Assembly (NCBI GenBank): GCA_008632985.1
Contig: QPGO01000216.1
Span: forward strand, 1 to 64,000
Direction: 5' to 3'
From: Psammoneis japonica
Taxonomy: Eukaryota
Length of the DNA: 64,000 nt
This document shows positions 8,101 through 35,450 of this stretch, one piece after another. A program made the translations under genes and the position numbers. How positions within the stretch are numbered: the first letter of the stretch is position 1; every line of letters starts with the position of its first letter. The notes beneath the pieces were generated by a model. It did no database searches, was not told where the DNA came from, and worked only from the letters and a program-made list of their open reading frames with translations.

Positions 8101-8386
8101 CATTTGTGCTGTTCCTGCAGACAAGAGGCCTTTCGGAGAACAAGATCGTGATGACAGATTGTCCGGATGCGATTGACATTGACACACAAGATGTCAACAT
8201 CACATCGCACGATTGCATTTGCATTTTTCGACATCTGATCAATTCTGTGTGATTGATCTGTCCTTTGTGCCAACCCACGATTGATGCACGATTGAAATGT
8301 AAACTCATTTAATGTGTGGACACACACACATGCAACGCACATGACACAATGCACACTGCATTTGCCTCCCCAATTGCACATTAGAG

Positions 8387-11300
8387 TCAGTCGTTAAACG
8401 GCGTCATCCGATGGATGTTGACAGTGTCAATGACGTCACCGCGTTTGATCTGTGCTGTGCCATTGGTGTGCACCGTCGTCATTGCATGCGGTCCAATGCA
8501 GGGCTGTTCCAATTTCTGCGAGTCTTTTTCGAGCAGTGTCTTCTCTCCTGCTCTGTGCACATGAGGAGTGCACCAAGCATTCTCTTGAGTGTTGTTTTTA
8601 TTTGTGATTTCTTGTTTTCCCTGCTGGATCAATTTCCAGTCTGCGACATGTTGGACGTTAAACATCATGTCTCTGTCAAAGACTGATTGTCCAGGTGCAG
8701 CTTGTGCAGCAGTGTGATGCACAGAATGCACTGCAAATGCCACTGCTGACAACATTCCAGTGAAAGGATCCTCAGTGTCCAGAGGTGCATGTTGCAAATC
8801 AAGTGCATGGATCACATTTCCCAGTGCTTGATGTGCGCGTTCAACAATTGTGTTTGCTTGTGGATTTTGTGCAGTTGCAGGCTTGACTTCAATGCCACAA
8901 TCATCTTGCACCATGTCTTTAAATTGGTGTCCGATGAACTCACTTCCACGATCACAAGCAATTGATGATGGCCAAGGGCATCTGCTTGACCATGTTTGTT
9001 CCAATGGTCCAGCTGCAGTTGTGGATTCCTCATTTGGAATTTCTGCAACTTCAAACCATCCGGTTGCCGGATCAATCATTGTCAAACACTTCAGGACTGG
9101 GGGTTCTTTCTCCCCTTTATGACACATTTTGTGTGGTCCAACAAGATCCACACACAGTCGTTCCCATGGCACTGATTCTGTGCACTTGGGAGGTAAATGT
9201 CCACATTTTTTGTGTTTCTTTTTGAATTTCTGGCACGTCTCACATTTCGACACGTATTTTCGTATGTCTTCATGCAAGGCAGACCACCACAAGTGTTGTG
9301 AGATTGTTTCTTCTGTTCGATTTGTGCCAGGATGAAGAAGGTGCACATGACACCAATCTGTCACTGCTTTTTGTAACGTCTTTGGAATGACGATTTTATC
9401 CTTGTGACATGTGAGCAACCGGTCTCGCTTGCCTCCACAAAAAGTCTTCGTGTGAAAGGTCTCATTGGACAATTTGGAGAGAATGTCTTTGTCCCGTTTT
9501 TGTTCAGTGTCGAGAACTTTGTAATTTAACGGAAAGACATTGTCGCAGGATTTTGGTGGGATTTTTTCAGCCAACTCTTCTGTGCTGAAGTTTTCCACAG
9601 AGATTGTTTTTTTCATGGTAAGTCAGCTGATCGCATCTGCGACAATGTTCGCCTTGCCCCCGAGATGTGTTGTTTTGGGACTGTGTTCTTCTGTTGTTAG
9701 ACGCCAACGCATGACTCTGTCCGTTGTGAAGTTTTTGCATGTGAGATTTTTGTGATCCATGTGTGCATTTGTCGGTTGGCCAAACAGTGTGTTTCGGAAC
9801 TCTTTTAACGTCTCCACTGTGGACAATGGTTCTTTTTCCATTGCAGCATGACGCGTCTGCGCTCCATTCAGCTTGTGGCTGCAGAAGGCAATTGGTCGGT
9901 TGTTTCTGCATGATGACCGCCCCCAATTGAGACTTGCTCACATCGGCATGTGTCTCAAAGGGTGCGCTGAAATTCGGATGTGATGACAGCATGTCTTTAG
10001 AGATGATGCGCTTCATGTTTTTGAAGGCTTTTTGTTCTGTTTCGGTCCACTGCCACTTCACTTGGGTTGAGGTGAGTTTGGCCAAAGGAGCTAGAACATG
10101 AGATCGTCGGGGCCACATGTCTTGACAGCAGTTGATCACACCGACAAAGCGTCGCAATTCTTTGTGAGTTTTGGGTGTTGCGATCGCGTGAACAGCTTCC
10201 ATTTTTTTTGGTGTGGGACTGATGCCATTGCGGGTGACATGAAAGCCTAGATAGTCTGCTTCGGGTTCATCAAAAAAAGACTTTTCAGCATTGACTTTCA
10301 ATCCGGCTTGTTCAAGGCGTAAAAACACCATCTCAAGCTTCTTGAGGTGGTCTTGAAAATCACCTTTTGCAAGGCACAATGTGTTGTCAATGCAAGTTCT
10401 GACAAACTCCAGACCTGCCATGAGCTCACTCGTGTGCTCTTGAAAAACATCTGGAGCTCCACAGATTCCCATGGGGAGTCCACAGCATTCATGTTTTCCC
10501 AAGGCATGACAATCATGCACAAACGACGTGCATGCGGCGTCAATTCAATGTGACAGCATCCCACATTTAAACCAAGGGATGTCGCACACATGAAACCTTT
10601 GAGTTTCTGTGGCATGTCCTGAATGTTGGGCAGAGGAAATGGTGCACGTGTTGACCTCTTGTTCAGCTCACGAAAGTTGGACAAAAACCAAACTCGACCA
10701 TTTTTCTTGGGTTGGACAAAGGTTGGAGCTGCCCATTCAGAGCAATTTGTTTTTCTTGGGACTTTTAACTTGCACAGTCTTTCAACCTCCTTTCAAGCAG
10801 TCGCCTCCAAGGCTTGTGGCAAGGGAAATGGTTTGGTGTGACACGGCCTCGCACCGATTTCAACTTTAAATCCACCGGTTTCCCGGTCCATTTGCCTGGA
10901 GAACCATCAAAAAGGTTTTCAAACCTCTTTGAGAGGAAGTTCAACTGCTTCTGCTCTTCTGGAGTTAGATGAGTTGCTGCTGCTGCAACGTTGTTGAGGT
11001 TGGCAGCGTGACAATCTGAGTCAAGGATCCGATTGACCCTGTCATTGAGGCTGATCACGGCATGAGATTCCTCAACATGATTGGCAATCAACTTGAAAAC
11101 GTTGGCATCGAAGAGTGCATCAACATTCTTCATGGGCACAGTTGCATCCTCCCATTTGATCTCTTCATTTGAGAAGCCTGACACCATTCCAAGACTTGAC
11201 ATTAAGTCGCGTCCCATGATCATGTCACAACGACTCAAAGAAGAAGGGGTCTTGTCAACATGTGCCGTTGTTTCAATCATCTTGTGTTTGTCAAATTCGG

Positions 11301-11586
11301 GCAAGGAGAACTGGATTTTGCGCCAACTGTCAGTTGTAAAGTGCCCTCCTTTGGTTTCCCAGATTTTGGTGGCGGATGTTTTTGTTCTGAGTTTCTACAT
11401 GAATTTGCGCAAAATTGTGGTTGACGATGTTCCGCTGTCGAGGAGAACGCGCGGAGGCTTGTTTTTCGCTTTTCCCAATGAGGCATTCACATGAGCGACG
11501 ATTGCTGGACTAGTGTGAGTTATTTTGGCCCTTTTTCCGGGCTTCCTGACATCCAGTGACGCGCGAGACTCCTCTTGCGGTGCGAG
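8387..11586 (-). pseudogene. pol: Gypsy pol (protease, RT, RNase H, integrase), frameshifted and TA-mutated
   Basis: LDSG protease; RLPMG-like/VRTCIDN RT; DVSKSQLGAV RNase H; HLLHPG..C..C and DRGSEF integrase. Confidence 0.92.
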
Positions 11587-13135
11587 TCATTCCTCAGAAT
11601 CACTGCGCGTCAATTTTTCAAACTGACAATTTTTCTTGTCAAGAGCATCAGAGTCAGAATCATTGCTCTTGCACTTTCCATCTTTGTTCGAAGAGCTCGC
11701 CTTGAGTGTTTTCTGAACTGCCTGGACTGCCATGGCGTTCAACTCTTCTTTGCGAGCGGCGTTGTCATTGTCGCTACGCGACCACGTGCGATTGCCATTT
11801 GAACGGCGGACGTGTTCCAGCTCTAGGTGGGACCTCGCACTGCTGAACTGTGACACAATTATTTTTTATCATCCGTCGTATGTTTCGCACGCACATTTCT
11901 ACGTGTTCTGTTGTAAAAAATTGTTCCACACTGCCTGTTTTGCAAAGCCAAAGGCTTTCTGTTATCTGCACTTGTGTCAATAAAAATGCACTGGGTGTGT
12001 TCTTTAATGTCTAAAGAATGTACCCGGGCACACTGCATGTGTTGTGCTTCAAGTGTGGAGGAGGAGATACGTTCGCAAAATTGCCTCTTTTTCTGTTGGC
12101 GATCATTCACATGTCCATCGCTCAATGATTTTACTGCGGAGCTCGCACGTAGAATTCTACGGGCCCAATGTCACAAAAAGTCCCACCTAGGACTGGAACC
12201 CGTCGGCATCGTTTTGGATCACGTTCAGTGTTTCCACGACGTTCTTTCACTGGTTTCTTGATCGACCAGCATCTGTCCGCACCATGAGTGGATTTTTTGC
12301 ATGGAATGCACCACTTGTCGGACTGGGATTTTTCGGTGCCATGTTGGTGACCATTTTTGGAACCAACCATTCTTGGCTTTCGATCCAGCACTGCCACTGG
12401 GATCAGCCTTGGCATGAATGCCATCGAATGTGTCCTCAGCGACCTCCAGGCGCTCCAGAAACTCAACCAACTTGTCGCAAGCATGTTTCAAAATTTCGAA
12501 ACCTTGGACAGTCGACTGACACTGCCACTTTCGAGGTGCAAGATTGAAGAGGATGTCCTTGAGTTCGTCCTCCTCCATCTTCTGATCCTCTGCGAAAAGG
12601 GAGGACAGAACTTGAGGTCTTCGTTGACTTCTTGGACCCAAGCAGCGATTTCGCATGCTTTCATGGACTCTGGCTTCTTGAGATCACGACGCAAGTAACG
12701 TTTCTGAATCTGAAGTGCGTTCTTGGGAAACACATGCTGAGTGAAATGTTGCAGGCATTTCTCGAAGCTTCCTTTGGCAGATTTGTTTTCAACATTCATC
12801 GCCCCATTTTCGAAAGCACACAGAGCATCTCCTTGCAACAACACACGCATGAGACGGAACTTGTCAGATTGCTTCTTGATGTTCTGACCCACTGGAAGTT
12901 GATCGCAGCTCTTTAAAAATTCGATGCACTTGGGAACACCCTGCTTCTTGCAGTGCTCGACATTGACCATGTGGGTGCGACTGTCCTTCTTCTCGGGATG
13001 AAAACACTGCTCCATCTTGAGATGCTGGCTCGGTTTGAGCGTCTTTGGCTCGGAATTCGATTCCAACGGCTGAGGAACGATTTTCTCCTGCCTTGGCGAA
13101 GTCTTGGCGTTAGCAACTTGAGGTGAAAGCTTCAT
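11587..13135 (-). pseudogene. gag: Gypsy gag, interrupted by a MITE and frameshifts
   Basis: Homologous to 19042-20196; CX2CX4HX4C knuckle CIPCKKSTHGADRC. Confidence 0.85.
11809..12204. mobile_element. MITE family M2, copy 1; 4-bp TSD ggcg/ggca
   Basis: TIR gacgtgttccagctctaggtgggac / gtcccacctaggactggaacccgtc; absent from the gag copy at ~19975. Confidence 0.85.
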
Positions 13136-14287
13136 TTTTCGACTTGTCACCTTCTGTGGTGTGCACACACAATGCACTGTGCTCAAAGAACGAGTGCAAA
13201 CGAAAGTAGAATCAAGTGTGAAAAGTGAAAATTATGAGAATTATTTCTGTGCAATCATTTTGGGTTTCTCCGAATGAGTTCTCAATGGCCTAAAGCATTT
13301 GTGCTGTCCCTGCAGACAAGAGGCCTTTCGGAGAATAAGATCGTGACAACAGATTGTCCGGATGCGATTGACATTGACACACAAGATGTCAACATTGTCG
13401 CATGATCGTATTTGCATTTTTCGACATCCGATCAATTCTGTGTGATTGATCTGTCCTTCGCACGAACCCACGATTGACGCACGATTGAAATGCAAACTCA
13501 TCCAACACACAGATGTGAGATGTGCACGTGCATGTCGCACATGACAACGCATGTTGCAGTGGATCAACATTCTTCATAGATGCAGTTGCTTCTTCCTCTT
13601 TGATTTCTTCATTTGCATGGTCCAATGTGATTTCAAGACTGGACATTAAGTCGCGTCTTATGATCACATCACATGGACTTGAAGAAGAATTCTCATCATC
13701 AACACACACTGTTTGAATGTCAGCACGTCTTAAATTCGCACAGTGAGAACTGAATTCGGTGTTTACTGTCAGTTGTAAAGAGCTCACCCTTGGTTTTCCA
13801 AGTTTTTGGTGGCTGATTCTTGTGTTCTCAACTTTTGCACGAATTTGCGTAAAATTGTGGTTGACGATGTTCCGCTGTCGACAGGAACACGCAGATGCTT
13901 GTTTTTCTCCTTCCCCAAGGAAGTGTTCATATAAATGATGACTCCTGGACTAGTGTGAATTATTTCTGCCTTTTTTCTAGGCTTCCTAATGTCCAGTGGA
14001 GCAAACAATTCGTGAACAGACCCAAATTGTTCTTCGGATTCACTCTGGATCATCCGATTAAATTGGCAATTTTCTTCACTGAGGGCATCAGAATCCAATT
14101 CTTTGCCCTTGTGCTCTTTTTCTTTGTTCGAGGAACTCGCTTTGAGCATTTTTTTTTTGAACTGTCTGATCATTCATGACGTTCAACTCTTTTTTGCGAG
14201 CGGCATTTTCGTTGTCACGCCAAGTGCGATTGCCATTTGAACGCGCCGTTTCGGATCACGCTCAATGTGTCCACGGCATTCTTTTGC

Positions 14288-16460
14288 ACTCTTTGTTTAC
14301 CACAGCGACACGCGCGCGTTTTTTTTTTCGTGCCGCGCAACGCAGCACCCAACCAAAAAGACAACCAACATGGCACGTCGCCGTTCCGAGTCATTACAAC
14401 AGATAGCACCCCCATGCCATACGCGGTGATCGTTGACACGGTAAAGTGTATTATGATAGCTTGGTTTGGTTTGTTGTTGCGTTGGCGTTGTTTTTTCACG
14501 TCTTCACTTACCGGATGTCGTATCGGCATTTCTTGCATTGTGTCATGCGCGACCGACCGAAACCCACAGAATCGGTGTTGTCGTTTCGTCGTCTGTAGGA
14601 CGGAATCTGGTGGAATAGCAAACAAATAGGTAAGCATACATCACAATACTGTTGTTCTGTAGTGTCAGATTGTCCTTTTTAGCATTTCATATTCCCTCAG
14701 CTAACCCTTGCTTTTCGTGCTACTGTTTTTTGCTTTTCAGTACGAAATCACGGTCGTTGATGGCATGGGCATGATGGACGTGGATATTGGCAAGCATGTC
14801 TCTATACTTACCTTCAGTTCTCTCGACACTGCCATGGAGGATGCTGATTTGGAGTCCTGGGTGGCTCCTGCAGCCGCTAGTTTACCTGCAGCGCCGTCAA
14901 AATTTTGCGACAGTTTCACCCGTCGCTTCTTGCGCCAATCCGATCAAAGAAAATAAGGCAGGACGGAATCTGGTGGAATTTCAAACAAACAGGTAAGCAT
15001 ACATCACAATGCAATTGTTCTAATTTGTCAGATTGTCCTTTTTCACATTTCACATTCCCTCAGCTAACCCTTGCTTTTTGTGCTACTGTTTCTTGCTTTT
15101 CACAAAGACAACAGAAAGGCACGTCGACGTTCGGAGTCATTACAATCAACTGCACCCCGACACCATACTTGGTGATTGTTAACATGGTAAGGTGTATTAT
15201 GATAGCTTGTATTGGGTTGTTGTTGTGTTTTTGATGCGTTTTCAATTCGTGGTTTCTCACCGGCTCTTATCGGCATTTCTTGCATCGCGACAGGTGCGAC
15301 CGACCGAGGCTGACAGAATCGGTATTGTTGTTTTCGGCTTCCTACTGACAAAATCTGGTGGAATATCAACAAATAGGTAAGCCTACAACACAATGCTGTT
15401 GTTCTGTTGATTATGAAACCCAACAAGGAAACACTAGCTTGTTGCAGTTTAGGATTCGAAAGCAATCCGTCGCCCAGAGTGCCCTATCTTTGACTTTGGA
15501 GACTCGAGTCCTGGAGCCAGCTTGAAAGAAGAAAGCTCGTACATGACTGTGAAATGATAACTCCATGTAGCTAAAAATTAAAGACCTATTACTATATGCT
15601 ATTTGTTGTTGTTGATAAACATGCGTTAGTGCGTAGTGCCGAGAAATAAAAAACATGCTTTAGCGCGTGATGCCGAGGTGTAACATGAAATGCATTGAGC
15701 AATAAATAACAACGGAAGAGACGACAACATAAACTTACTTTGAAAAAAAGCAAACAAAAGCTTGCCTGCATCTATCGCTTTCGCCCCCCCATCCATATTT
15801 CAAATCCAACAGCATCAACACGACAACCGTTTCCAAAAATGTTGTTTCCAAAGGAAGAGCGACTTCTTAAAAAGTGCCAGGTATCCTTGCCATTCCTGTA
15901 GTATCAGCACTGACACCTGAATCCGAGCGACAGGTATTGCTTTGATAGTCTACTGCCACGCCATCAACGGTACTGTACTCTCTATTAATTCTGACGCAAC
16001 AAATGAGCGCAGCCAGAAACACGCGTTAGTGTGTAATGCCAAGACATTGCATGAAATGTGTCGAGTGACAAATAACAACAACGCAAGAGACAGCAATGTA
16101 ACTTACTTTGGTGCTGAAACAAAAGATTACCTGCATCTCTTTCGCCCCCCTTCTATAATTCAAAGCACAATTCATAGTTGTAATGTCTCAAACAGCGGAA
16201 CAACAGTAACGCTTTGAATGCAGTCAAATTGCTGCAGCAGAAGAAGCGGCAACGCCAGGAAGCACATTATTAAATATCAAAAATGCAATTGGACGATAGA
16301 AGACATCACCCACTGTGGTGATTCTGTCACAACGGCGAAGACAGTCACATCCATGAAGGCTTTTTGCGTCGATGTGGTGTGTGGTGTGGTGTGAAAAAAA
16401 TGTGCGTCCGCACGACCGCGCGAAAAAATCCGTAGTAATCCGTAGTGGTAAACAAAGAGT
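14288..16460. mobile_element. 2.2-kb non-autonomous TIR insertion with internal duplications and intron-like segments
   Basis: 16-bp TIR actctttgtttaccac / gtggtaaacaaagagt; absent from the family B copy at ~58670-58720; repeated blocks at 14372/15118 and 14598/14961/15350. Confidence 0.75.
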
Positions 16461-17730
16461 TAATCCGTGATGTGGGTGTTCTTTTTTCAAAGATTAGACC
16501 TTGCATTCACTTTGGATTGTTCAGGTGCCATGCAGGAGACCATTTTTGGAACCAACTTTGGAACCATTTGGTTTTGGAATCAATTCCGTTATCAGAGCCT
16601 GATTTGACATGTTTTGTTGTCATAGACGTCATGAACGACTTCCAAACGACTCAAAACTCAATCAGCTCATCAAGGACAAGTTCCAACAGTTGATTGTTTT
16701 GGACAGTGGACTGATGCTGCCATCCTTGCGGTGCGAGTGATGGCCAATAGCTCATGACTCGGTTTCCCGCTAGATTCAACTTAGAATCGATTGAAGGGTC
16801 GCACAGACTCTCTTCAATGACCTCTTGGGTCTGACAGAGGCTTTCTTGCTGTCAAGCAGCTCCGGTTTCTTCAGATCGTCTTGAAAATAACAACTCTGAT
16901 TCTGAAGTGCAATTCCTGGAAAGACATGAGACAAGAGACTCTTGAGGCACTTTCCAACGGTTCCTTCTAGCTCTTTGGACTCGAGGCTCATTGATTCGGT
17001 CTCTAAAAATTCTGCAATGGTCTCTCCTTGCATGCCAGATGCATTTCTCGGACCTGATCAACTCAAGGCTTGAAATTCTACCCAACCATGACTTGGTGTG
17101 GGCATTTCGATAATGCTGTGCACTTGCAGAGTCCTTGATCCTGAGGTGCTTGAAATGGATCATATTGGAACGAATCCTCTTGTCTTGCAGACGAAAAACA
17201 GGGTTCCATCTTGAGGCACTGCTCGGATTGAGCTGCTTCCGCTCGGAAATCGATTCCAGCAGAACCAACGCATTTCATGCCTGCTCATGGAAGAATTTAC
17301 AAAGGCACATCAGCAAAAATTTTCATTTTCTGTGTTTTTACCTTCTGTGGTGTGTGTGCACAATGCACTGTGCTCGAAGAACGAGCACAAACGAAAGTAG
17401 AATCAAGCATGAAAAGTGAAAATTATGAGATTAAATTTTACTCTGTGATTTTTGGTTTCTCTGAATGAGTTCTCAATGGCCCAAAGCTTCTGCACTGCTT
17501 CTACAGACAAAAGGCCTTTCGGAGAATACATTCGTGACAACAGATTGTCCGGGTGCGATTGCCATTGACACGTAAGATGTCAACATCATCAATCGATCGC
17601 ACTTGCAATTTTCAACATCCAATCAACTCTGTGTGATCATTCTGTCCTTCGCACGCATCCACGACTGTGGTGCGATTGACACATAAATGACACGTGATTG
17701 TGAACATGCATGTGACAGTCGCATGCTGCA

Positions 17731-18630
17731 AAGCTGTTCCAAATGGCCAATCAAGCCCCAAGCTGTGCTTGTTCTGCACTGTGCCATGCTGCAAGTTCAG
17801 ATTTGAAGTGCCATGGGACTGCAAGCCTGCCCTGGCACTTGACAAACGCAATGGCAGCTGCAAGTGGGGAGATGCAACTGACCTTGAGATGACTCAGCTC
17901 AGTGAGCCCAAGGTGTTCCATGACTGCAAACACTGCAAGGACTCTGGTGCCCCAGCAGGACACAAGAAGATTCAGGTGCACCTTGTCTGTGACGTCAAAC
18001 ATGACGGCAGGCACAAGGCACAACTTGCTGCCTGATGGGCACCTCACTGACATGCCCATTGATGGTGTTCACTCTGGTGCAGCATCCCTCTGTGGCCTTT
18101 GAATGATGATCTTCCTGGCTGAACTCAATGAGCTGGAGACATGGGCAACCGACATTGGCAAAATGCCTGCCCAAAAAAGCTGTGACCAAGGAGAAACTGC
18201 ACATCATTGCAGGTTCTGAATTTGGAAGTTTGAAAGGGCACATCCTTGCAATCCATGAGACTCTGTGCAGTCTCCACCACTGTGGTTTCAGGTGACACTG
18301 ATGCTTTGCCAGTTGTTCAAGAGCTGAAGGATTTTTCCTGTGCTGCACTGAACCTGACATTTGGTTGTGCCGGAATGTTCATCGCACTTTCAATTGCATG
18401 ACCCAGCATGCTTGCATGCCCACCAGCACACACCTGAAAAAGGTGTGCAAGTCACCCAACCCGGTTCTCAATGTCCATTGCCATGACAAACCTGTTGCCA
18501 CTGACACGGTGCACTCCGACAACTCCGCCATCGACTCTGGATGTGCCAGCACACAGCTCTTTGTTGGCTTGAAATCCCTCATCACCAATGTGTGCAGCAA
18601 CAAGATGGACAAAGAATTTGTCAGTGCACT
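17731..18630 (+). mobile_element. Copia (CoDi-like) RT 5' fragment joined to an integrase N-terminal fragment
   Basis: KKIQVHLVCDVKHDGRHKA (RT); PVATDTVHSD..AIDSG...QLFVG (integrase). Confidence 0.85.
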
Positions 18631-19041
18631 TGCAACATGCGTTGTCATGCACATCACATGTGTGCATGTCTGTGCATTAAACAAATTTGTGTTCCAATCG
18701 TACGTCAATCGTGGGTTCGTACGAAGGACAGATCAATCACACAGAGTTGATCGGATGTCGAGAATCGCAAATGCGACTGTATGATGATGTTGACATCTCA
18801 TGTGTCAATGTCAATCACACCCAGACAATCTGTTGCATCGCACTCTCCAAAAGGCCTCTTGTCTGTGGGAGCAGTGCAAAAGGTTCAGGCTGTTGAGAAC
18901 CCGTTCGGAGAAACCCAAAATGATTGCGCAGAAATGATCCTCACAATTTTCACTTTTCGAACTTCGTTCTACTTTCGTCCACACTTGTTCTTCGAGCACA
19001 GTGCATTGTGCACACACACCACAGAAGGCAACAAGTTCAAA

Positions 19042-20196
19042 ATGAAGCTTTCACCTCATGTGACCAACACCAAAACTTCGTCAAGGCAGGAGAGAATCGT
19101 TCCTCAACCGTTGGAATCGAATTCTGAGCCGAAGAGCCTCAAACTGAGTCAGTGCCTCAAGATGGAGCAATGTTTTCATCCCGAGAAGAAGGATGGCCGC
19201 ACCTGCACCATCAATGTCGAGCACTGCAAGAAACAGGGTGTCCCCAAATACATTGAATTTCTCAAGAGCTACGATCAACTTCCAGTGGGCCAGAACATCA
19301 GCAAGCAAGCCGATGAGTTCCGTTTCATGCGCATGTCACTACAAGGAGATGCTCTGTGTGCTTTTGAGAATGCGGTGGCGAACATTGAAGATGAATCTAT
19401 GGAAGGAAGCTTCGAAAAATGCCTGCAGCACCTCACGAAGCATGTGTTTCCCAAGAACGCACTTTCGGTTCAGAAACGCTGTTTGCGTAGTGATCTCAAG
19501 AAGCCAGAGTCAACGAAAGCACGCGAAATTGCCGCCTGGGTCCAGGAAGTCAACAAAGACCTCAAGTTCTATCCTCCCTTTGGGAAGGATCAGAAGATCG
19601 AGGAGGACGAGCTCAAGGATGTCCTCTTCAATCTTGCACCTCGAAAGTGGCAGCATCAGTCGACCGTCCAGGGTTTCGAAATTTTGAAACACACCTGTGA
19701 CGAGTTGGTTGAGTTTTTGGAGCGCCCAGAGGTCGCAGAGGATGCATTTGACGGCATCCATGCCAAGGCTGATCCCAGCAGCAGTGCTGGATCAAAAGCC
19801 AAGAGTGGTTCTCAACGTGGTTCCAAAAATGGTCACCAACATGGTGCCGAAAAATCTCAGTCCGAGAAGTGGTGCATTTCATGCGAGAAATCCACTCACA
19901 ACATGGACAAGTGCTGGTCGATTAAAAGACTTGCGAAAGAACACCGTGGGAACTATGAACCCAATCCAAAATGGCGTCATTCAAATGGCAATTGCATGTG
20001 GTCTCGTCGCGATGACGATGATGCCGCTCGCAAAGAAGAGTTGAAAGCTGTGGCGGTCCAAGCAGATCAAAAAATGCTCAAAGCGAGTTCTTTGAACAAC
20101 GACAAGAAGCGCAAGAGCAAAGATCATGACTCTGACACCCTTGACGAGGAGAATTGTCAGTTTGAAAAATTGACGCGCAGCGATTCTGAGGAATGA
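19042..20196 (+). CDS. gag: Gypsy Gag (open frame, heavily substituted)
   Basis: MKLSPH start after the 5' LTR; CISCEKSTHNMDKC zinc knuckle. Confidence 0.85.
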   Translation: MKLSPHVTNTKTSSRQERIVPQPLESNSEPKSLKLSQCLKMEQCFHPEKKDGRTCTINVEHCKKQGVPKYIEFLKSYDQLPVGQNISKQADEFRFMRMSLQGDALCAFENAVANIEDESMEGSFEKCLQHLTKHVFPKNALSVQKRCLRSDLKKPESTKAREIAAWVQEVNKDLKFYPPFGKDQKIEEDELKDVLFNLAPRKWQHQSTVQGFEILKHTCDELVEFLERPEVAEDAFDGIHAKADPSSSAGSKAKSGSQRGSKNGHQHGAEKSQSEKWCISCEKSTHNMDKCWSIKRLAKEHRGNYEPNPKWRHSNGNCMWSRRDDDDAARKEELKAVAVQADQKMLKASSLNNDKKRKSKDHDSDTLDEENCQFEKLTRSDSEE

Positions 20197-23100
20197 CTTG
20201 CACCACAAGAGGAGTCTTGCGCATTGCTGGATGTCAGGAAGCCCGGAAAAAGGGCCAAAACAACTCATGCTAGTCCAGTGGTCGTCGCTCACATGAGTGC
20301 CTCTTTAGGTGAAGCGAAAAACAAGCCTCCACGCATTCTCCTTGACAGCAGAACATCATCAACCATGATTTTGCGCAAATTCACGCGGATGCTCAGAACC
20401 AAAGTGTCCGCCACCAAACTCTGGGAAACCAAAGGAGGGCTCTTTACGACTGACAGTCAATGTAAAATCCAATTCTCCTCACCCGAATTTGACAAACACA
20501 AGATGATTGAAACAACAGTGCATGTTGATGATTCCCCTTCTTCTTTGAGTCGTTATGACATGATCATGGGACGCGACTTAATGTCGAGTCTTGGGACAAT
20601 GTTGGACTTCTCGAATGAAGAGATTAAATGGGAAGATGCAACTGCTCCTGTGAAGAATGTTGACACACTCTTTGATGCCAAAGTTTTTTTAAGTTGATTG
20701 CCGATCATGTTGAGGAATCTCATGCAGTGATTGGTCTTAATGACAGGGTCAATTGGATCCTTGACTCAGACTGTCACCCCGCAAACCTCAATGATGTGAC
20801 AGCAGCAGCCACTCATCTAACTCCTGAAGAGCAGAAGCAGCTAAACCCACTCTTAAAAAGATTTGAAAACCTTTTTGATGGTTCTCCAGGCAAATGGACC
20901 GGGAAACCGGCAGATTTAAAGTTGAAATTGGGCATGAGTTCGTGTCATGCCAAACCATTTCCTGCACCACAAGCCTTGGAGGCAACTGCTCATAAAGAGG
21001 TTGAAAGACTGTGCAAGTCAAAGGTCTTAAGAAAAATAAATTGTTCTGAATGGGCAGCTCCAACCTTTGTTCAACCCAAGAAAAATGGTCGAGTTCGGTT
21101 TCCATCCGACTTTCGTGAGCCAAACAAGAGGTCAAAATGCACTCCGTTTCCTCTGCCCAATGTTCAGGATGTGCTGCAGAAGCTTGAAGGTTTCATGTGT
21201 GCAACATCCCTAGATTTAAACATGGGATGCTGTCACATCGAGCTGATGCCACATGCACGTCGTTTGTGCATGATTGTCATGCCTTGGGGCAAATGTGAGT
21301 GATGTAGACTGCCTGTGGGAATCTGTGGAGCTCCAGACATTTTCCAAGAGCACACGAGTGAGCTCATGGCAGGTCTGGAGTTTGTCAGAACTTATGTTGA
21401 CGACACATTGTGCCTTGCAAAAGGTGATTTTCAAGACCACCTCAAGAAGCTTGAGATGGTGTTTTTACGCCTGGAACAAGCCGGATTGAAGGTCAACGCC
21501 AAAAAGTCCTTTTTTGCTAAACCCGAAGTGGACTGTCCAGGCTTCCACATCACCCGCAATGGCATCAGTCCGATTCCAAAAAAAGTAGAAGCAATTCACG
21601 TGATCGCAACTCCTGAGACTTGCAAGGAATTGCGACGCTTTGTTGGTGTGATCAACTGCCATCAAGACATGTGGCCTCGATGATCTCATGTTTTAGCTCT
21701 TTTAGCCAAACTCACTTCAACACAAGTAAAGTGGCAATGGACCGAAACAGAACAAAAAGCCTTCAAAAATGTGAAGCGCACAATCTCCAAAGATGTGCTG
21801 TTGTCACATCCGAATTTCAATGTGCCCTTTGAGACATGTGCTGATGCGAGCAATTCTCAATTGGGGGCGGTCATTATGCAGAAAAACTGACCAATTGCTT
21901 TCTACAGCCGCAAGCTGAATGGAGCGCATGCGCGTTGTGCTGCAACAGAAAAAGAGCTGTTGTCCACAGTGGAGACGTTAAAAGAGTTCCGAAATGTGCT
22001 GTTCAGCCAACAGATAAATGTGCACACGGATCACAAAAATCTCACACATGAAAATTTCACAACGGACAGAGTCATGCGTTGGCGTCTAACAACAAAAGAG
22101 CACAGTCCCAAAACAACATGCCTTGAGGGCAAGGCGAATGTTGTCACAGATGCGATCAGCCGACTCACTGTGGTGAAAAAAATAGAACCCATGGAAACCC
22201 TCAGCACAGAAGAGTTGGCTGAAAAGGTCCCACCAAAATCCTGCGACAATGTCTTTCTGTTAAATCACAAAGTTCTTGATTGTGAACAAAAGCGGGACAA
22301 AGACATTCTCTCCAAATTGTCAAATGAGACATTTCATGCGAAGACTTTTCGTGGAGGCGAGCAAGACCGGTTGCTCACATGTCACAAGGACAAAATTGTC
22401 ATCCCAAAGACGTTGCAAAAAGCAGTGATAGATTGGCATCATGCGCACCTTCTTCACCCTGGCACAAATCGAACAGAAGAAACAATCTCACAACACTTGT
22501 TCTCCAAATTGTCAAATGAGACATTTCATGCGAAGACTTTTCATGGAGGTGAGCGAGACCAGTTGCTCATGTGTCACAAGGATAAAATCATTGTTCCAAA
22601 GACGTCACAAAAAGCAGTGATGGATTGGTGCTGTGTCACACGCACCTTCTCCATCCTGGCATAAATCGAACAGAAGAGACAATCTCACAACACCTGTGGT
22701 GGTCCACCTTGCGTGAAGACATACGAAAATAAGTGTCGAGATGTGAGACGTGCCAGAAATTCAAAAAGAAACACAAGAAATGTGGACATTTGCCTCCCAA
22801 GTGCGCAGAATCAGTGCCATGGGAACGACTGTGTGTGGATCTTGTTGGGCCATACAAAATGCGTTGTAAGGGAAAGAAAGAACCCCCAGTCCTGAAATGT
22901 TTGACAATGATTGATCCGGCAACCGGATGGTTTGAAGTTGTGGAAATCCCAAATGAGGAATCCACAACTGTGGCTGGACTGTTAGAACGAACGTGGTCAA
23001 GTAGACATCCTTGGCCATTGTTAGTTGCATGTGACCGTGGAAGAGAGTTCATCGGACACCAATTTAAAGACATGGTGCAAGATGATTATGGCATTAAAGT

Positions 23101-24533
23101 CAAGCCTATAACTGCACGAAATCCACAAGCAAACGCAATCATTGAACGCGTACATCAATTGCTCGGAAATGTGATCCGTACACTTGATTTGCAACACACA
23201 CCTCTGAATGCTGAGGATCCCTTCGCTGGAATATTATCAGCAGTAGCATTTGCAGTACGTTCTACGTATCATACTACAGTACTACGCAAGCTACACCTGG
23301 ACAATTAGACCCCGTCCAAACTGGATCGTACTTGCGTACTATCGTACTTGAGTATAGCCTGCTTTATGACGTCACGAGCCATAAAAAGGGAGTCGTGTCC
23401 AAACTGCATCGTACTTGCGTACATGAGTACTATCATACCCAAAAAATTAGTCGAGTTACTCATTTCTGACATCACCGGAGCGCGTATCGAGTGGATGCGA
23501 TACAAGTCGCCATGGCGATGTGTGGTTGTTTTTGACAGCTTCTTTCGATTTTACCACTTTATAAGTAACACCAATCGATAATATGAAGCGGATATGATAT
23601 GTTACGGCAAGAAAATGTTAAAATATTGTGCACTTGTTGCTGAAATAGACCTTTTGTATTCAAAGGAATTTTTTCTGTCTGTTGCATCATACAAAGTCAA
23701 TGCATAAGGTGGCTAAACTAGATCTGTTAGGCCCAACAACAATCTTATCGACTAATTTAGATACGAAGGATTTAATGGGTTTATTTGTATGTGGTGTGAC
23801 TTTAGAGTAAGGGTCGATATGGCCCGAGAAGAATGTGCAGAAACGTTCAAATGAAAAGTTTCTGAAATCACCCCGTAAGTCTAACGTTATTTCACTGAAC
23901 AAAACAAGAAACCACACCTACACACTAAGTAAAATATGGCGGTTCTAATAAGGTTACTTTATCATCATAAGGTAAAACTTTGATGCCGCTGTGGGCCGTC
24001 ATCTTCATTCGTCGTGATGCTGTTTCTCGTGCGAGCGGGGGTATGATGTCAGGGGTATGATGTCGCGAAGGAACAGACAGGGCCGGTGGTCTCTGTTCCT
24101 GACGCGAGATCGTATGGCCTAAATATTGTAGAATCATAGGGCACATAACCCTAAAAAAGTCGCAAAGCGCCTTTTTTAGGCCATACTCAAGTACGAAAGT
24201 ACGCAAGTACGATCCAGTTTGGACGGGGTCTTAGTCTTTAACAGAGACATGGTATTTAACGTCCAACATGTCGCAGACTGGAAATTAATCCAGCAGCGAA
24301 AGCAAGAAATTATAAATAAAAATAACGCTCGAGAGAATGCTCGACGTACTCCTTATACTGTACGTACAGAGTAGGAGAGAAGATACTACTCGAAAAAGAC
24401 TCGCAGAAATTAGAACAGCCCTATTGGACCGTATGTAATAACAACGGTACACACTGATGGCACAGTACAGATCAAACGCGGTGACGTCATTGACACTATC
24501 AATATCCGTCGGATAATACCGTTTAACGACTGA
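20197..24533 (+). pseudogene. pol: Gypsy pol with frameshifts, an internal ~193-bp tandem duplication and a MITE insertion
   Basis: ILLDS protease; SEWAAP, DFRE, VRTYVDD RT; RNase H; integrase core; GPY-type C-terminus. Confidence 0.92.
23308..24230. mobile_element. PIF/Harbinger-like MITE, 923 bp, 53-bp TIRs, TSD TTA
   Basis: TIR gaccccgtccaaactggatcgtacttgcgtact... with 2 mismatches; tta at 23305-23307 and 24231-24233; removal restores GQLVF. Confidence 0.93.
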
Positions 24534-24939
24534 CTCTAATGTGCAATTAGGGAGGCGAATGCAATATTCGTTGTTATGTACGTTATATATATGTATATCT
24601 ATATATTTAATAAATTTATATTCCAATCGTACGTCAATCGTGGGTTCGTACGAAGGACAGATCAATCACACAGAGTTGATCGGATGTCGAGAATCGCAAA
24701 TGCGACTGTACGATGATGTTGACATCTTATGTGTCAACATCAATCGTATCCAGACAATCTGTTGTCACGATCGTATTCTCCGAAAGGCCTTTTGTCTGTA
24801 GGAGCAGTACAAAAGGTTTTAGGCCATTGAGGACCCGTTCGGAGAAACCCAAAATGATTGTGCAGAAACAATCCTCACAGTTTTCACTTTTCGAACTTCG
24901 TTCTACTTTCGTTTACACTCATTCTTCGAGCATGGTGCA

Positions 24940-27900
24940 CACTCAAAGACAACATTTGCAACTGTGGTGCCCCACCCAAGCTTGTCAGCCATCGTGCTCA
25001 AATCAAGATCAGCAACAAGGTCCTTGGCATCCTCAGTGCTCTCTTCATGTCCAGTTGGCAAAGCAAGCCCCACCAAGAACAGCACCAGAACTTTGCTGAA
25101 CACCGCCACCAAACCATGAAGAACATGGCCAACACCATCATGGATTGCTTTGGCTCCCAGGCCCGCACCCACTGGCACACCCCCACTGAAGTGCTGTCTG
25201 GATCCACTCCCGGCATCAGCCCCCTTCTCCATTTTCAATGGAGGGAACCCAAGCACCACCATCTGGATGATTCCAACTGGCCATCTGAATCCCGCAATTG
25301 TTGGCATTGCTGAACATGAGGGCCATCAAACAATGACCAAGATTCTCTCTTACAACACCCAGAAGATTCTTTGTCGGTCTGGCATCCGCTCTGCCACTGG
25401 TGACCCGTCAATGCACAATTTGCATCTTGACACTCTTGATGGGGAGTCTGCTGCACCCATCATTGAATCCCACCATGACTCCAAGGATTTGCTGGATTCA
25501 TCAGATGGGGAGGAGATCAGGATGCCCAAGATGCCAGTGTTCAACCCCGAGGATGTCGTTGGACTCACCTTCCTCATGAAGCCATGACAGAATGGACAGC
25601 ACTGCAGAGCCCGCATCATCAAAGCCATTGAGGATCATGGCTTTGAGATCAGTGACAACGCGGAACTTGTTCAGTTCATTTGTTCAGTCAAAAACAATGA
25701 ATGAGAGGAAATCCTTGCCTGCAATGACATCATCCATCACATGGAGCAAGAAGAAGATGACACCACCATCTGGAAATTCTGGCACATTGTGTGGCATGAA
25801 GGACCGTTGAGACCTCACGACCCCTCCTGGAAAGGCTCAAGCTGCAACATCATGCTTGAATGGGAAAGTGGGGAGATCATGTCTGAGCCCCTTGCCATCA
25901 TTGCCAAGGATGATCCCGTCACCTGTGCCATCTGCGCATGAGAGCACGGCCTCCTCAAAACTGAAGGATGGAAGCATTTCTGCAAAATGGCTCTGCACCA
26001 GAAGAAGCTGTTCCACATGGCCAACCAAGCCAAACTGTGCTCATTTTGCACCACTCATTTGTGGGCATGAAGTGTGTCACATGACTGCAAGCATGCCTTG
26101 GCCCTTGACAAGCACAATGGCAACTGCAATTGGGGAGACACAACAGACCTTGAGACAACTCAATGAGTGTGAGGTCTTCCACGATTGTGGACACCTCAAG
26201 GACTCCAGTGCTCCAGCAGAACACAAGACGAGATTTGAGTGCAGCTGGTCTGTGATGTCAAACACAACGGCAGGCACAAATCATGACTTGTTGCAGATGG
26301 ACACCTCACCGACATGCCCATCGACAGCATCCATTCTGGTGCAGTGTCTCTTTGCAGTCTCCGAATGATGATCTTCCCAGCTGAATTCAACAAGTTGGAG
26401 ATGTGGGTAAATGACATTGGCAAAGCCTGCCTGGAAGCCATGACCAAGGAGAAACTGCATATCATTGCAGGTCCTGAATTTGGAAGTTTGGAAGGACACA
26501 TCTTTGCAATCCACGAGGCTCTGTACAGTCTCCGCAGCTCTGGTCTCAGGTGGCACAAACGCTTTGCCGATTGTCTGCAAGCTGAGGGATTCTTCCTGTG
26601 CAGCGCCCAACCCAACATTTGGTTGCGCCAGAATGGTGACCATTGTGAATGTGTGGCAGTGCATGCAGATGACCTGGCCTTTGCTGTGAAAGATCCCCAG
26701 GCCTTTGTCGACACTCTCACAGAGAAATGTAATTTCAAGCTCAGGGGCACTGGATCACTGGCATTCCACCTTGGTTGCAACTTCTCTCGTGACTCAGATG
26801 GCATGCTGTGCATGGCTCCTTGCAAGCACATTGAGCGCATGGTCAAGAATTGCTCACGCCTTTTGGGGGAGAAGCCTTGCACCAATGTGCTGTCCCCTCT
26901 TGAAAAGGAAGACCACCCCAAGCTTGACAACTCCGAAAGGAAGACCACCCCAAGCTTGACAACTCCGAACTGCTAGAGCCTGAGGGCATTCACCAATTCC
27001 AGTCACATCCCTGGTTGGTTCCCTGCAATGGGGCTGTGTCACTCAGATGCACAGACATCACTGTGGCTGTCATGTCCCTCTCCAGCTTCTGTGCAGCACC
27101 CCAACAGGGCCATTTGGATCACGCCAAATGTGTCTGCAGATTCTTGTCCAAGATGTGACATGGTGCCCTGCGAGTGCACACCAAGGAACCCGACTGTTCA
27201 GACCTCCCCAATCCTGTGTGCAACTGGGCTCAAACTGCACATGGTGATGTGAAGGAACCAATCCCTGAAGACACACCTGAGCCTCTTGGTTGGCAAATTT
27301 CATCACCACAGCCCATTGTTTTGATGTGAACTTGCTCCATTGCATGCTCACTGCATGCTCCATCACATGCATCACTCATTTCCTCAACAAGTTTCTGGCT
27401 GATTGGTTCTCCAAGAAACAAGCTGCAGTCAAGAGTGTGACCTGTGGATCTGAGTTTGTCGCCACTGGGGACACATGTAGAACAGATCATTGATCTGTGC
27501 TTCACATTGCATCACCTTGGCATCCTGACTCACTGCACATGTCACATGTTCGGGGACAACAAGTCGGTTGTGGACAGTGCCACCATCCCACACTCCAAGT
27601 TGCAAGAGAGACATGCTGCCCTCTTGTCCCATCATGTGCACGAGGTGATTGGCTCCGGTTTCCCTAAGCTCCACTTTGTCAAAGGTTCCCGCAACCCTGC
27701 TGACATCCTCAGCAAACACTGGGGCTGCTCCCAGGTTTGGAACCTCCTGTGTCCTCTCATGTTTTGGAATTTTGATCCTGAGGCCTTCAGCAAATCTGAT
27801 TTTGAATCCATTGCTGTGGACTCCTCAAGCAAACTGGGGAGTGACAGGATTTGAACAAGATCTTGGTTTGTTTTGGTTTGTTGCACACAATTGCATGTGC

Positions 27901-28098
27901 TCTCAGCTCCACTCATGGCATGCACGATGCATTTTGCTTTCAAGCCACTCAGCTCACAAGAATGATGACAGCAGCACCAACATCACGACACCAGTTGTGT
28001 GGCTCCTGCAGTGGCATCTGCACAGATGCTCATCTGCAGTTTGGACAGCACCAAGGAGTTGTTGTTTTCTTCCACCCAGTCATCTTCAATTTCTGTCA
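24940..28098 (+). mobile_element. Copia (CoDi-like) integrase-RT-RNase H, PPT and 3' LTR (27842-28098)
   Basis: AVHADDL (YVDD), FGDNKSVV, NPADILSKHWG; PPT aaactggggag; LTR tgacag...ctgtca. Confidence 0.9.
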
Positions 28099-28458
28099 CC
28101 CAGGTTTGGAACCTCCTCCATCCTCTCATGTTTTGGAACTTTGATCCTGAGGACTTTGGCCAATCTGACTTCAAATCTGTCACTGTGGACTCCTCTGGCA
28201 AACTGGGGAGTGACAGGATTTAAACAAGAATCCAATTTGTTGTGTGCAATTTTGTGTGCTCTCAGTTCCGTGCGTGACATGTGACGCAGTTTGCTTTTGA
28301 GCCACTCGGCTCACAAAAATGATGGCATTTGCACCGACATCATGACACTGGTCTTTTGGCTCCTGTGATGGCATCTGTGCGGATGCTTGTCTGCTGTTTA
28401 GACAGCAGCAAGGAGTCATTGTTTTTTTTTTCACCCAATTTCTCTTCAATTTCTGTCA
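28099..28458 (+). repeat. Tandem second copy of the copia RNase H end, PPT and LTR (LTR 28211-28458)
   Basis: Repeats the sequence 27731-28098. Confidence 0.85.
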
Positions 28459-28469
28459 CAGTCACTTGC

Positions 28470-28960
28470 AGCACACAGAGCCCAGAGTCCACTTTGAAGA
28501 AGAAGTCAACTCAATTTGCTGCCATGCCATCAGGGAGTTGGTGGCAATGGGCAAGTTCCTCACAGAACACATGAGGCTGGAATGCAATCTGGCAGATCTC
28601 ACCACCAAGATCATGTGTGGTAGAGTCAAATGAGATGGACTCGTGAACATGGTGCTTCGCGACTTGTGCGATGACTGAGGCACAATCAATCCAGTTCCCT
28701 CATCCCATGAGGTTTGCTGCTGGTCATCAAGGTTCCCTTGTTGCATTGGAGCAGCCAATTGATGCCAGAAAGTAAATTGGGTCAAGCCGATTCCATGCAT
28801 GGACTTGAGTGGACTGAAGAATTTACCATGTGAAATTAGCTTCACAGGAATTTGCCATGTTGAACAAGGAATTTGGCGACTGTGTGCATTTGATGTCCAT
28901 GCACGATAAAGCAGCACGATGTTGCATCCTTTTCTTTTAGTCTTTCCCTGGTGCATGTGA
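28470..28960 (+). mobile_element. 3' remnant of a second copia family (RNase H end, PPT, LTR start)
   Basis: PESTLKKKS..ICCHAIRE..AMG...NLADLTTK; purine tract ttgagtggac at ~28805. The right boundary is uncertain. Confidence 0.65.
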
Positions 28961-29144
28961 CCACAAGGCATTCATTCAGGTTGTTGTGCAATTTCTGCAG
29001 TTGCGTGTCTGCTCAGAACACAGCTCCTCTGTGGGCAATTTTTAACACAACCATTGTCATTGCAGATCACACATCCCCAAGGATGACTTCTACAAGACAA
29101 CAATGGTGCCTCTTGTGTTGTTCTTTGCAAACAACACCTTGGGG

Positions 29145-29660
29145 TTAGGGCGACAGTGGCGGAGGAGGTGGCGGTGGTGGAGGGCTCAGGAGGCGGAAAA
29201 TTGCAATCAGCGAGGGTAAAGCCATTGAAAAGAATGTTTTGGCCACTGCAGTTGGGACCACAATCAGATGTGCACTGCTTGGTGAAGCAGCAAGTGTCGC
29301 TGTTTGGTTGGTTTCTGGGACCGGGACACACGGGATCAAAACCATTGACTGGCGTCGGCCCATTTCCATCTGTGAAATGGCACGAAATCTCCTGGTTGCT
29401 GTTGCCGGAGACAAGGGGATCACAATTTCCCGGGTCGACAGTCGTTCCTTGAAGAACAACAAAATTGTAGCAATCGCAGGCGTGTTGCCGGCATTCCGCA
29501 TCAGTGGGCGGTGTGGGAGGCGGTGGTGGTGGCGGTGGCAGAGGAGGAGGCGGTGGCGGAGGAGGAGGTGGCGGCGGCGGAGGAGGTGGCAGAGGAGGAG
29601 GATGAGGAGGCGGTGGCGGAGGAGGAGGTGGCGGAGGAGGAGGCGGCGGCGCGGTCCGAA
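29145..29660 (-). pseudogene. Poly-Pro plus Cys-rich extracellular protein segment (exon or paralogue remnant; apparent frameshift near its 3' end)
   Basis: Long Pro run with varied codons, then CRQHACDCY...CCFTKQCTSDCGPNC; terminal poly-Pro in a different frame. Confidence 0.55.
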
Positions 29661-30124
29661 GTCGGAAGAGAGTGAACGGGTCATTTGTTGTTTTGCGTTT
29701 CTGATCACAGTTGTCTCTCCATGGATGTTCAATGTGTGTGCCAATTCGTTGTGTTGCATTGTAGTTAGCGTGGTACACCCAGAAAAGCACATTGTCTGTG
29801 CTTGGGTTTTTTGTCGCCCAGCTGAAGCTACGAGTAACCTTACCGGTGCCAGCAGGGCCCTACTAGAGCGAAAAAAAAAAAAATTGTAGTCTACACTTCA
29901 AAAGATAAAGTACTTGTAAGTTCTCCACCTCGACTTTCCGTTTCACGCAAGCTGGAGCTTTCAAGCAGTAGCGTGCACCCAAACTTTGAAATACACCGTG
30001 TGCAATAAACAAAAAATCGGCGCGACATTGAGTAGATTGGTTGTTCGTGCTTCTACTGTATGGTGAATCATCACTCTGAAATTAAAAAAACAATCATGCA
30101 AATCACTAACTGAAGAACTAAGTG

Positions 30125-35021: not shown

Positions 35022-35357
35022 CTCGCACCCTTCCAGACAACATGCCAACTGACCATCCACCTACAACATCGACATCGTGCCTAGAAGTTGACAAAAACCC
35101 ACCACCACCCCGAAAAAGGCGCCACAACTATTTCAAATTTCGCGCGCACAGCCTACAATCTTGCGCGCGACAACTACCCCTTATTCGTACGACTGCATTA
35201 ACTATATAATACCCACTACTTTTTGTCTTAAGGAAAAACGACACGAATCGGAGTCTTTCGGGAATAAATAATGTCTTCGAGCTTTTGGAATTCAGTCGTG
35301 TTGGCGAGAATGACTTTTAATCAACGTATATACTATATAACAGCTGTTTCACTAAAA

Positions 35358-35450
35358 CGACTAAAAACTGGCGGGAAAGGCTGGTTAGTAGTCGTGCAGG
35401 CGACTAAAACTGGCGGGCAACGGCTGGTTAGTCGTGCAGGCGACCAAAAC
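35358..35450. repeat. Short tandem repeat, ~41-bp unit, about 2.3 copies
   Basis: cgactaaaactggcggg...ggctggttagtcgtgcagg repeated. Confidence 0.7.

Follow-up and report, generated by a model that had tools for sequence, protein, structure and literature searches.

A TA-retaining tract spanning a Harbinger-type MITE in a TA-depleted Gypsy retrotransposon of Psammoneis japonica

INTRODUCTION

Hypermutation of integrated foreign DNA at TpA dinucleotides has been reported in Bigelowiella natans (Mettrop et al., bioRxiv 10.64898/2026.01.13.699255). In this preprint, two integrated viral regions of mutation-accumulation lines mutate at a rate raised 1000-fold, exclusively from TpA to TpG/CpA; genome clusters with depleted TpA and enriched CpA+TpG are described, with reverse-transcriptase and DDE domains over-represented; an ADAT2-like deaminase is proposed; and the hypermutable region reaches about 21 kb past the annotated viral insert. 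TA-destroying hypermutation has only just been reported, in one preprint and from one alga, and our literature search returned no other description of such mutation of repeats. Here, we analyze a stretch of 64,000 nucleotides from Psammoneis japonica (assembly GCA_008632985.1, contig QPGO01000216.1, positions 1 to 64,000 of the forward strand; hereafter, the window) and in particular a Ty3/Gypsy long terminal repeat (LTR) retrotransposon, copy A, which is TA-depleted except in a tract around an inserted Harbinger-type miniature inverted-repeat transposable element (MITE). The 64-kb window is eukaryotic DNA made up almost entirely of nested transposable elements, and its overall observed/expected ratios are 0.30 for TA, 1.55 for TG, 1.50 for CA, and 0.71 for CG.

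Fungal repeat-induced point mutation (RIP) resembles the pattern in the window in that dense transitions at one dinucleotide affect integrated repeats, copies are mutated independently, and repeats contrast sharply with unique sequence. However, RIP makes TpA from CpA, whereas in the window TpA is destroyed (TAY has become TGY/CAY, as judged against outgroup proteins), so the direction of change is opposite to that of RIP. RIP also leaks outward from repeats into unique flanks; here, in contrast, it is the unmutated state that reaches into a repeat. With respect to the repeat requirement of RIP, all of the mutated tracts seen here are repeats, yet near-identical multicopy Gypsy and MITE sequences are unmutated.

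RESULTS

A TA-retaining tract spans the MITE and the adjoining Gypsy sequence

TA observed/expected ratios were computed in 500-bp bins across the window, and a two-state hidden Markov model (HMM) of TA versus TG/CA sites was used to segment it into TA-poor and TA-normal DNA. The ratio is 0.03 to 0.3 in most bins, and the HMM separates long TA-poor stretches (2 to 7% TA among TA/TG/CA sites) from a few TA-normal islands (27 to 46%). One of these islands covers the MITE together with 220 bp of copy A to its left and 590 bp to its right (Table 1); the four bins of 23001-25000 have ratios of 0.96, 0.85, 1.05, and 0.76, compared with 0.19 in 22501-23000 and 0.03 in 25001-25500, and the TA-poor HMM segments on either side run from 16468 to 23083 (79/1359 sites TA) and from 24825 to 29760 (23/1082).

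Ancestral TA sites were inferred from multicopy alignments, and their retention was scored in copy A. In the remaining 4.4 kb of the element retention is about 0.1 to 0.26, whereas in the tract full retention extends for about 75 bp to the left of the MITE and about 465 bp to its right, and a shoulder of partial retention lies beyond each. The comparison with a fully mutated copy of the same family, copy B, leads to the same picture: 63 of the 71 TA dinucleotides that copy A has in 23050-24900 are TG (35) or CA (28) in copy B, and TA kept by copy A alone or by copy B alone is distributed 63:0 in this interval and 33:17 elsewhere in the element (Fisher p=1.6e-7). The encoded protein fixes the direction of change. 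Metagenomic Gypsy polyproteins (57 to 64% identity; integrase relatives) have tyrosine at GPY, SRYPWP, DDYGI, and STYHTT, where copy A has Y, H, Y, and Y and copy B has H, C, C, and H (DDYGI and STYHTT in copy A correspond to DDCGI and SVHHTA in copy B); because the outgroup proteins have tyrosine, tyrosine and TA are the ancestral states. Within the left shoulder of copy A, SRYPWP has become SRHPWP at about 23006, and GPYK (22853) and DDYG (23087) are kept.

A preliminary description of this locus had stated that tyrosine and TA are regained toward the MITE and kept for hundreds of base pairs beyond it, which is borne out by the retention per bin and by the 63:0 count against copy B. Its call at gagcatggtgca agrees with the alignment: the other three LTRs have CACAG at this point, consistent with CATAG as the ancestral sequence. 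The return to the mutated state that it placed at the LTR end is visible in the last bins of the 3' LTR (6/10 and 3/8 kept), and, as it had proposed, the tract ignores element boundaries, beginning within the integrase gene and stopping about 100 bp short of the 3' LTR end. The image of a TA-protected halo centered on the MITE stands in part. The midpoints of the tract (23953) and of the MITE are no more than about 185 bp apart, but full retention is not symmetric, and TA is indeed retained, but not TA alone, since CpG is also spared.

CpG decay parallels TA loss

In the tract, 3 CpG have been lost from copy A and 22 from copy B, compared with 58 and 45 elsewhere (Fisher p=8e-5), and 22 of the 51 CG that copy A has in 23050-24900 are TG/CA in copy B. 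Across 126 bins of the window, the TA and CG observed/expected ratios are correlated (Spearman 0.66). That CpG decays on the TA map suggests either one enzyme for both dinucleotides or methylated chromatin that marks the targets.

Gypsy copies were mutated in place, on both strands

The two LTRs of a retrotransposon are identical at integration. Those of copy A (375 and 380 bp, with TG..CA ends, TGCA...TGCA) show 45 transitions and 3 transversions relative to one another over 375 positions, TA/CG steps accounting for 37 of the 48; this divergence, together with the matching CACT/CACT duplication, shows that copy A was mutated after integration. The LTR pair of copy B differs by 48 transitions and 2 transversions, including 14 TG-versus-CA discordances, and the LTRs of a further element, E, have likewise diverged independently at TA/CG steps. 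Ancestral TA has become TG 55 times and CA 41 times in copy B, and these balanced outcomes indicate that both strands are targeted.

Four other origins of the pattern were rejected. RNA editing or editing of complementary DNA before integration (an APOBEC-like gradient) conflicts with the differences between the LTRs of one insertion and with the equal involvement of both strands, and template switching between mutated and unmutated RNAs conflicts with the former. Unequal crossover between two insertions is contradicted by the matching CACT duplication and by the mutated state being back at the LTR end, and protection by local base composition is contradicted by the same LTR stretch being mutated in the 5' LTR of copy A and in both LTRs of copy B.

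The flanking bases of TA were compared between TA-poor and TA-normal HMM segments (678 and 635 TA, respectively). Among the TA that remain in mutated DNA, TTAA, CTAG, and TTAG are 2.0- to 2.5-fold over-represented relative to TA-normal DNA, and ATAT (0.17), CTAT (0.32), GTAT (0.38), and ATAC (0.43) are depleted; this skew indicates that the preferred substrate is TA before a pyrimidine or after a purine. The mutated 5' LTR also has extra T-to-C changes beside mutated TA (TATT to CACT, TTTA to TCCA), a hint of clustered or slightly relaxed editing.

The MITE and its empty sites

The empty sites of the MITE in copies B and C carry one trinucleotide (TCA and TTG), and a contig from a public sequencing run (X1) skips 926 bases (923+3) between 23305 and 24232. 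Exact 32-nt MITE ends, sought on both strands, occur within the window only at 23308 and 24230, so the window contains one copy; when metagenome contigs were scanned with its terminal repeat, no copy was found. The longest reading frames of the MITE are at most 101 amino acids, the 6 frames tested contain 0 Pfam families, ARAGORN found 0 transfer RNA (tRNA) genes in it, and Rfam gave only a chance-level match (E=0.91). By these sequence features, namely TTA duplication, inverted repeats, and lack of a transposase, the insertion would belong to the PIF/Harbinger-type MITEs.

Copy numbers of the MITE and of Gypsy siblings

Among sequencing runs, the stretch was found in one DNA sample, and no RNA sample is listed. 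The public run offers contigs only; these drop rare variants and are short within the repeats, and none of those listed bridges the tract edges. Contigs that match mutated repeats exactly have depths of 29 to 36, which was taken as the single-copy depth. In comparison, MITE contigs reach 167 to 179, with 3 differences in 857 bp, and stop at the MITE border, which indicates about 5 near-identical MITE copies, all unmutated. One contig with a depth of 285 bridges the empty MITE site and is at least 90% like the TA-rich flanks of copy A, and contigs without the private indels of copy A have depths of 378 to 523; together, these indicate roughly 8 to 15 near-identical sibling Gypsy copies that retain TA. 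Repetition alone is therefore not the trigger, which weakens the idea of a pairing-dependent process, and donors from which gene conversion could proceed are present.

At 24706, about 5% of the contig depth has the letter of copy A, and some private letters of the copy A tract are absent from the high-depth sibling contigs. Variants common to the two LTRs of copy A against copy B are probably subfamily variants; a test based on the LTR partner thus excludes only B-like donors and not a sibling donor.

Comparator elements in the window

Another largely unmutated DNA transposon (14288-16460) lies inside a mutated copy, Z, of a second Gypsy family, and the Z sites flanking it were judged against copies Y and X of that family. 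On the 16461 side, retention of firm TA sites in the first 250 bp is 0/5, and mutation is seen as close as 13 bp to the junction; on the other side, the two nearest firm TA sites are also mutated. There is therefore no halo around this transposon. It has internal duplications and sharp TA borders and replaces about 23 bp found in copies Y and X; no clear target duplication was seen at its ends. The piece of Gypsy Z at 13559-14287 (729 bp), isolated between two insertions, keeps 11/30 sites, compared with about 0.1 to 0.2 elsewhere in Z.

Element E, which is nested in a Gypsy copy, contains an escape tract of its own. Its shoulder (52417-52796) has 4 TA kept versus 10 mutated, and in the sequence of E at 52797-53045, judged against a shorter mutated copy, E2 (44390-46370), which shares the first 250 bp of the E tract, 19/21 TA are kept. 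Inverted repeats of at least 16 nt in 52400-54100 were sought and none was found, indicating that tracts of this kind, graded shoulders included, are also present where this MITE is absent. Comparison of the TA-normal islands for common motifs gave none beyond LTR homology.

Gypsy Y is mostly unmutated, with 21/21 and 18/19 sites kept in its last 450 bp. Y and Z have common TG/CA states where X has TA or the other outcome, a sequence pattern that suggests that partly mutated Gypsy source copies kept transposing. Gypsy Y was considered as a second case of partial mutation in place and was set aside because many of its mutated sites are common to Z and the pattern is possibly part-inherited.

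Organization of copy A and other features of the window

The Pfam domains RVT_1, RT_RNaseH, Integrase_H2C2, and rve are spread along 21303-23305 of copy A in the order reverse transcriptase, RNase H, integrase, which its full-length relatives share. Identity between copies A and B is 0.80 to 0.92. With CCAC/CCAC around copy B and CACT/CACT around copy A, a 4-bp duplication is the rule of the family. Copy A has a tandem duplication of about 195 bp in the linker between RNase H and integrase (22309-22500 and 22501-22697; 85% identity) that is absent from copy B, and its halves have since diverged, mostly through the same transitions.

Gypsy-type RVT_1, RT_RNaseH, Integrase_H2C2, and rve domains and the Copia-type RVT_2 domain are found in many reading frames of the window, which belongs to a scaffolded assembly and contains a 711-N gap. 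The only host-like sequence is at 1-1256, where TA-normal DNA carries pieces of an XPG/FEN-type nuclease gene (XPG_N, E=2.3e-4); a protein search with this fragment returned no relatives. The destruction of TAA and TAG has left long frames everywhere in the mutated DNA. A 901-codon open frame on the plus strand of TA-poor DNA (61212-63914), which has no Pfam match, may accordingly be an artifact of TA loss and not a gene. A TA-normal island of 726 bp at 35129-35854 (72/155 sites TA) has abrupt borders between GC-rich TA-poor sequences and terminates in the motif TATAAATAG about 50 bp upstream of an ATG; no relative of this island was found within the window.

Table 1. Coordinates of the MITE, the TA-retaining tract, and the elements compared with them
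Feature	Position	Strand	Basis or remark
Harbinger-type MITE, non-autonomous, 923 bp, unmutated	23308-24230	.	54-nt terminal inverted repeats, 96% complementary
Left TTA target-site duplication of MITE	23305-23307	.	One trinucleotide in empty sites
Right TTA target-site duplication of MITE	24231-24233	.	Sequence; empty sites; run X1 contig
TA-normal tract	23087-24820	.	HMM; 146/374 TA/TG/CA sites are TA
Left shoulder, mutated and kept TA interleaved	22850-23231	+	About 45% kept; site lists
Ancestral TA kept	22975-23086		3/6
Ancestral TA kept	23087-23231		5/11
Ancestral TA kept, left flank, integrase core end, full retention	23232-23306	+	9/9
Right flank, near-full retention	24235-24699	+	39/43; integrase C terminus, polypurine tract, first 140 bp of 3' LTR
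Ancestral TA kept	24235-24399		13/14
Ancestral TA kept	24400-24559		10/13
Ancestral TA kept	24560-24699		16/16
Ancestral TA kept	24700-24819		6/10
Ancestral TA kept	24820-24939		3/8
Ty3/Gypsy LTR retrotransposon, copy A	18631-24939	+	LTR pair; Pfam order RVT_1, RT_RNaseH, Integrase_H2C2, rve
4-bp target duplication CACT of copy A	18627-18630 and 24940-24943		Flanks read
5' LTR of copy A, mutated state	18631-19005	+	22 dinucleotide columns TA versus TG/CA against 3' LTR
3' LTR of copy A	24560-24939	+	Four-LTR alignment; TA kept to about 24820, last 100-120 bp mutated
Polypurine tract AGGGAGGCGAA (inferred)	24549-24559	+	Position immediately 5' of 3' LTR
Gypsy copy B, fully mutated, comparator	7977-13558	-	Empty MITE site near 8683-8686; duplication CCAC/CCAC
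Gypsy copy C	2406-3185		Empty MITE site
Comparator DNA transposon, largely unmutated, 2.2 kb	14288-16460	.	Perfect inverted ends of 16 nt; lies within mutated Gypsy Z
LTR element E, 3.3 kb, nested in Gypsy copy	52036-55308		LTRs 52036-52416 and 54928-55308, both mutated
Escape tract of element E, about 0.9 kb	52797-53670	.	HMM TA-normal
Second Gypsy family, copy Y	57485-60913		
Second Gypsy family, copy Z	5199-17730	-	
Second Gypsy family, copy X	49640-57817		

DISCUSSION

An escape tract with the MITE as a possible passenger

The account that we favor, if tentatively, is that the tract escaped a process working domain by domain and that the MITE is a later passenger in search of TTA. A DNA-level process acting after integration would have turned TA, and CG, into TG/CA in the other 4.4 kb of copy A, including the 5' LTR, and would have left about 0.8 kb nearly untouched, namely the last part of the integrase gene together with the polypurine tract and the greater part of the 3' LTR. 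Such a process appears to work on domains with edges that are independent of element boundaries and fuzzy over 100 to 400 bp, and a local state, which may be one of chromatin, methylation, or guide coverage, would decide which stretch is targeted. The MITE, from a young family of about 5 copies that needs TTA, would have landed where such targets remained, probably in accessible DNA. The tract, which is 15% of the length of copy A, holds 31 of its 81 TTA/TAA sites, a 2.5-fold enrichment, and outside the MITE 272 of the 801 TTA/TAA sites of the window are in TA-normal DNA, so that 34 to 38% of such targets are in TA-retaining DNA; given the TTA requirement, this distribution of targets leads to co-location by chance in about 1 in 3 cases, before any preference for accessible DNA. 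The absence of a halo around the transposon in Gypsy Z also speaks for this account, as do the private changes of the tract, by which it looks older than a fresh copy. Beyond the tract itself, its graded edges, the mutation in place, the joint sparing of CpG, and the MITE-free escape tracts elsewhere, this account includes an order of events and a local state that we infer.

Several observations weigh against it. Retention is complete at both MITE borders and declines farther out, as would be expected of a MITE-centered effect. The mutation of the 5' part may also have followed the arrival of the MITE, and a passenger gives no reason for the escape of this particular kilobase. The retention in the 729-bp piece of Gypsy Z between two insertions is a hint that breaking up an element could play a role, and the E tract runs into 620 bp (53050-53670) that are absent from E2, where an unrecognized insertion could act as the MITE does.

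Alternative explanations

The opposite order, in which the MITE was inserted before hypermutation and kept its neighborhood out of the targeted state, is in our judgment unlikely, though it deserves serious attention. It might have done so through a patch of open or unmethylated chromatin of 1 to 3 nucleosomes per side or through the interruption of a continuous target that the machinery needs. The preliminary description had made the MITE the cause as an insulator of local chromatin or as a break in homology pairing. The nearest bins (9/9 on the left and 13/14 on the right) with decay outward, the near-central position of the MITE in the tract, and the sparing of both TA and CG, as a chromatin state would predict, all speak for such a cause, and so does the right flank, a remnant of 705 bp that the MITE has severed from the rest of the element, comparable with the isolated piece of Gypsy Z. 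However, this is a single case with one MITE copy in the window; the transposon inside Gypsy Z is unmutated and has no halo, and element E has an escape tract without a recognizable inverted-repeat insertion. No tRNA gene, RNA family, or protein domain of the MITE suggests a barrier element, full retention is asymmetric, and the family looks young by its few differences. Together with the distribution of TTA targets, these points leave a causal role of the MITE unsupported. The break in pairing is weakened further, as the unmutated sibling Gypsy and MITE copies are contrary to simple homology pairing and the B. natans preprint reports a single-copy region that is hypermutated. In its strongest form, a 0.9-kb noncoding DNA transposon would create, in cis, a zone free of an adenine-editing-type defense, which we regard as doubtful; equally doubtful is the extent that this zone would then have, shielding TpA and CpG fully over 75 to 465 bp and partly up to about 0.4 to 0.7 kb into the host retrotransposon.

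Ectopic gene conversion from an unmutated sibling, either before the MITE was inserted or from a MITE-bearing donor, with patchy mismatch repair leaving mosaic edges, would bring back TA and CG together, and donors are at hand in the sibling copies, whose sequence would be indistinguishable from the original because the LTR variants seem to be subfamily-wide. We nevertheless consider it improbable. The recipient would be about 15% diverged from any unmutated donor, and mismatch-repair anti-recombination strongly disfavors homologous repair at such divergence; both edges are graded over hundreds of bases with no single switch points, and element E would require a second independent event. The copy A-specific indels at about 24345 (+5) and 24425 (-2), which bring the tract to 3 private indels (+5, +5, -2), are not in the sibling contigs, nor are some of its substitutions, and 761 aligned tract columns contain 4 private transversions in copy A and 2 in copy B; these private changes make the tract look older than a fresh copy and argue against the recent conversion that the preliminary description had named as a possible objection. 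A chimera in which reads of a young, unmutated, MITE-bearing copy were merged into the mutated copy by the assembler is very improbable. The assembly is scaffolded with a gap in the window and the family is multicopy, and only 51% of the sampled words of 22000-26000 are in the public run, in which no listed contig bridges the tract edges; yet a chimera predicts sharp switches, whereas the shoulders are interleaved over 150 to 400 bp on both sides, the last 100 bp of the 3' LTR are mutated again and end at the matching CACT, and an assembler does not readily collapse copies that are 85% identical. What likelihood is left belongs to an explanation that we have not considered.

Comparison with known systems

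The observations point to a regional state (for example, of chromatin, methylation, or guide coverage) as the targeting signal, rather than to which element is concerned or to mere repetition. If the MITE is a passenger, as we favor, the case is a caution, because transposons that require TA accumulate in escape tracts and mimic protection. If instead the MITE is causal, it is a short sequence able to block the targeting signal, and the mechanism becomes experimentally approachable; the cis shield would moreover imply that the defense signal spreads along DNA and that MITEs are safe harbors or anti-defense elements for neighboring repeats.

The insertion has in common with PIF/Harbinger (Tourist-like) MITEs the TTA duplication, long inverted repeats, no coding capacity, a low copy number, and near-identical copies, and at 923 bp it is long by MITE standards. 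A protective effect on flanking DNA is not a known property of this group. Heterochromatin barrier elements are exemplified by yeast tRNA genes and TFIIIC sites. A barrier is a short sequence that limits repressive spread over one to a few nucleosomes and would give a halo of this size; the MITE, which ARAGORN and Rfam found to have no tRNA gene or known RNA family, differs from barriers of the RNA polymerase III gene type.

The closest system remains that of B. natans, and the process seen in the window may be the same one, judging from the mutation signature. The two have in common near-exclusive TpA to TpG/CpA changes on both strands, confinement to DNA of foreign origin, action after integration, and limits that do not follow annotation. 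The preprint deals with viral insertions of 25 to 186 kb in 1-kb windows, whereas here LTR retrotransposons and tracts smaller than an element are concerned; its text makes no mention of LTRs, retrotransposons, boundaries, or context, which leaves LTR-pair dating, escape tracts below element size, a preference for flanking bases, and the joint decay of CpG undescribed there. What the present locus adds is action in place on retrotransposons, kilobase tracts spared within elements, edges graded over a few hundred bases, and CpG on the same map. The locus is of value for the limits that it sets on target choice by a process that has itself only just been described.

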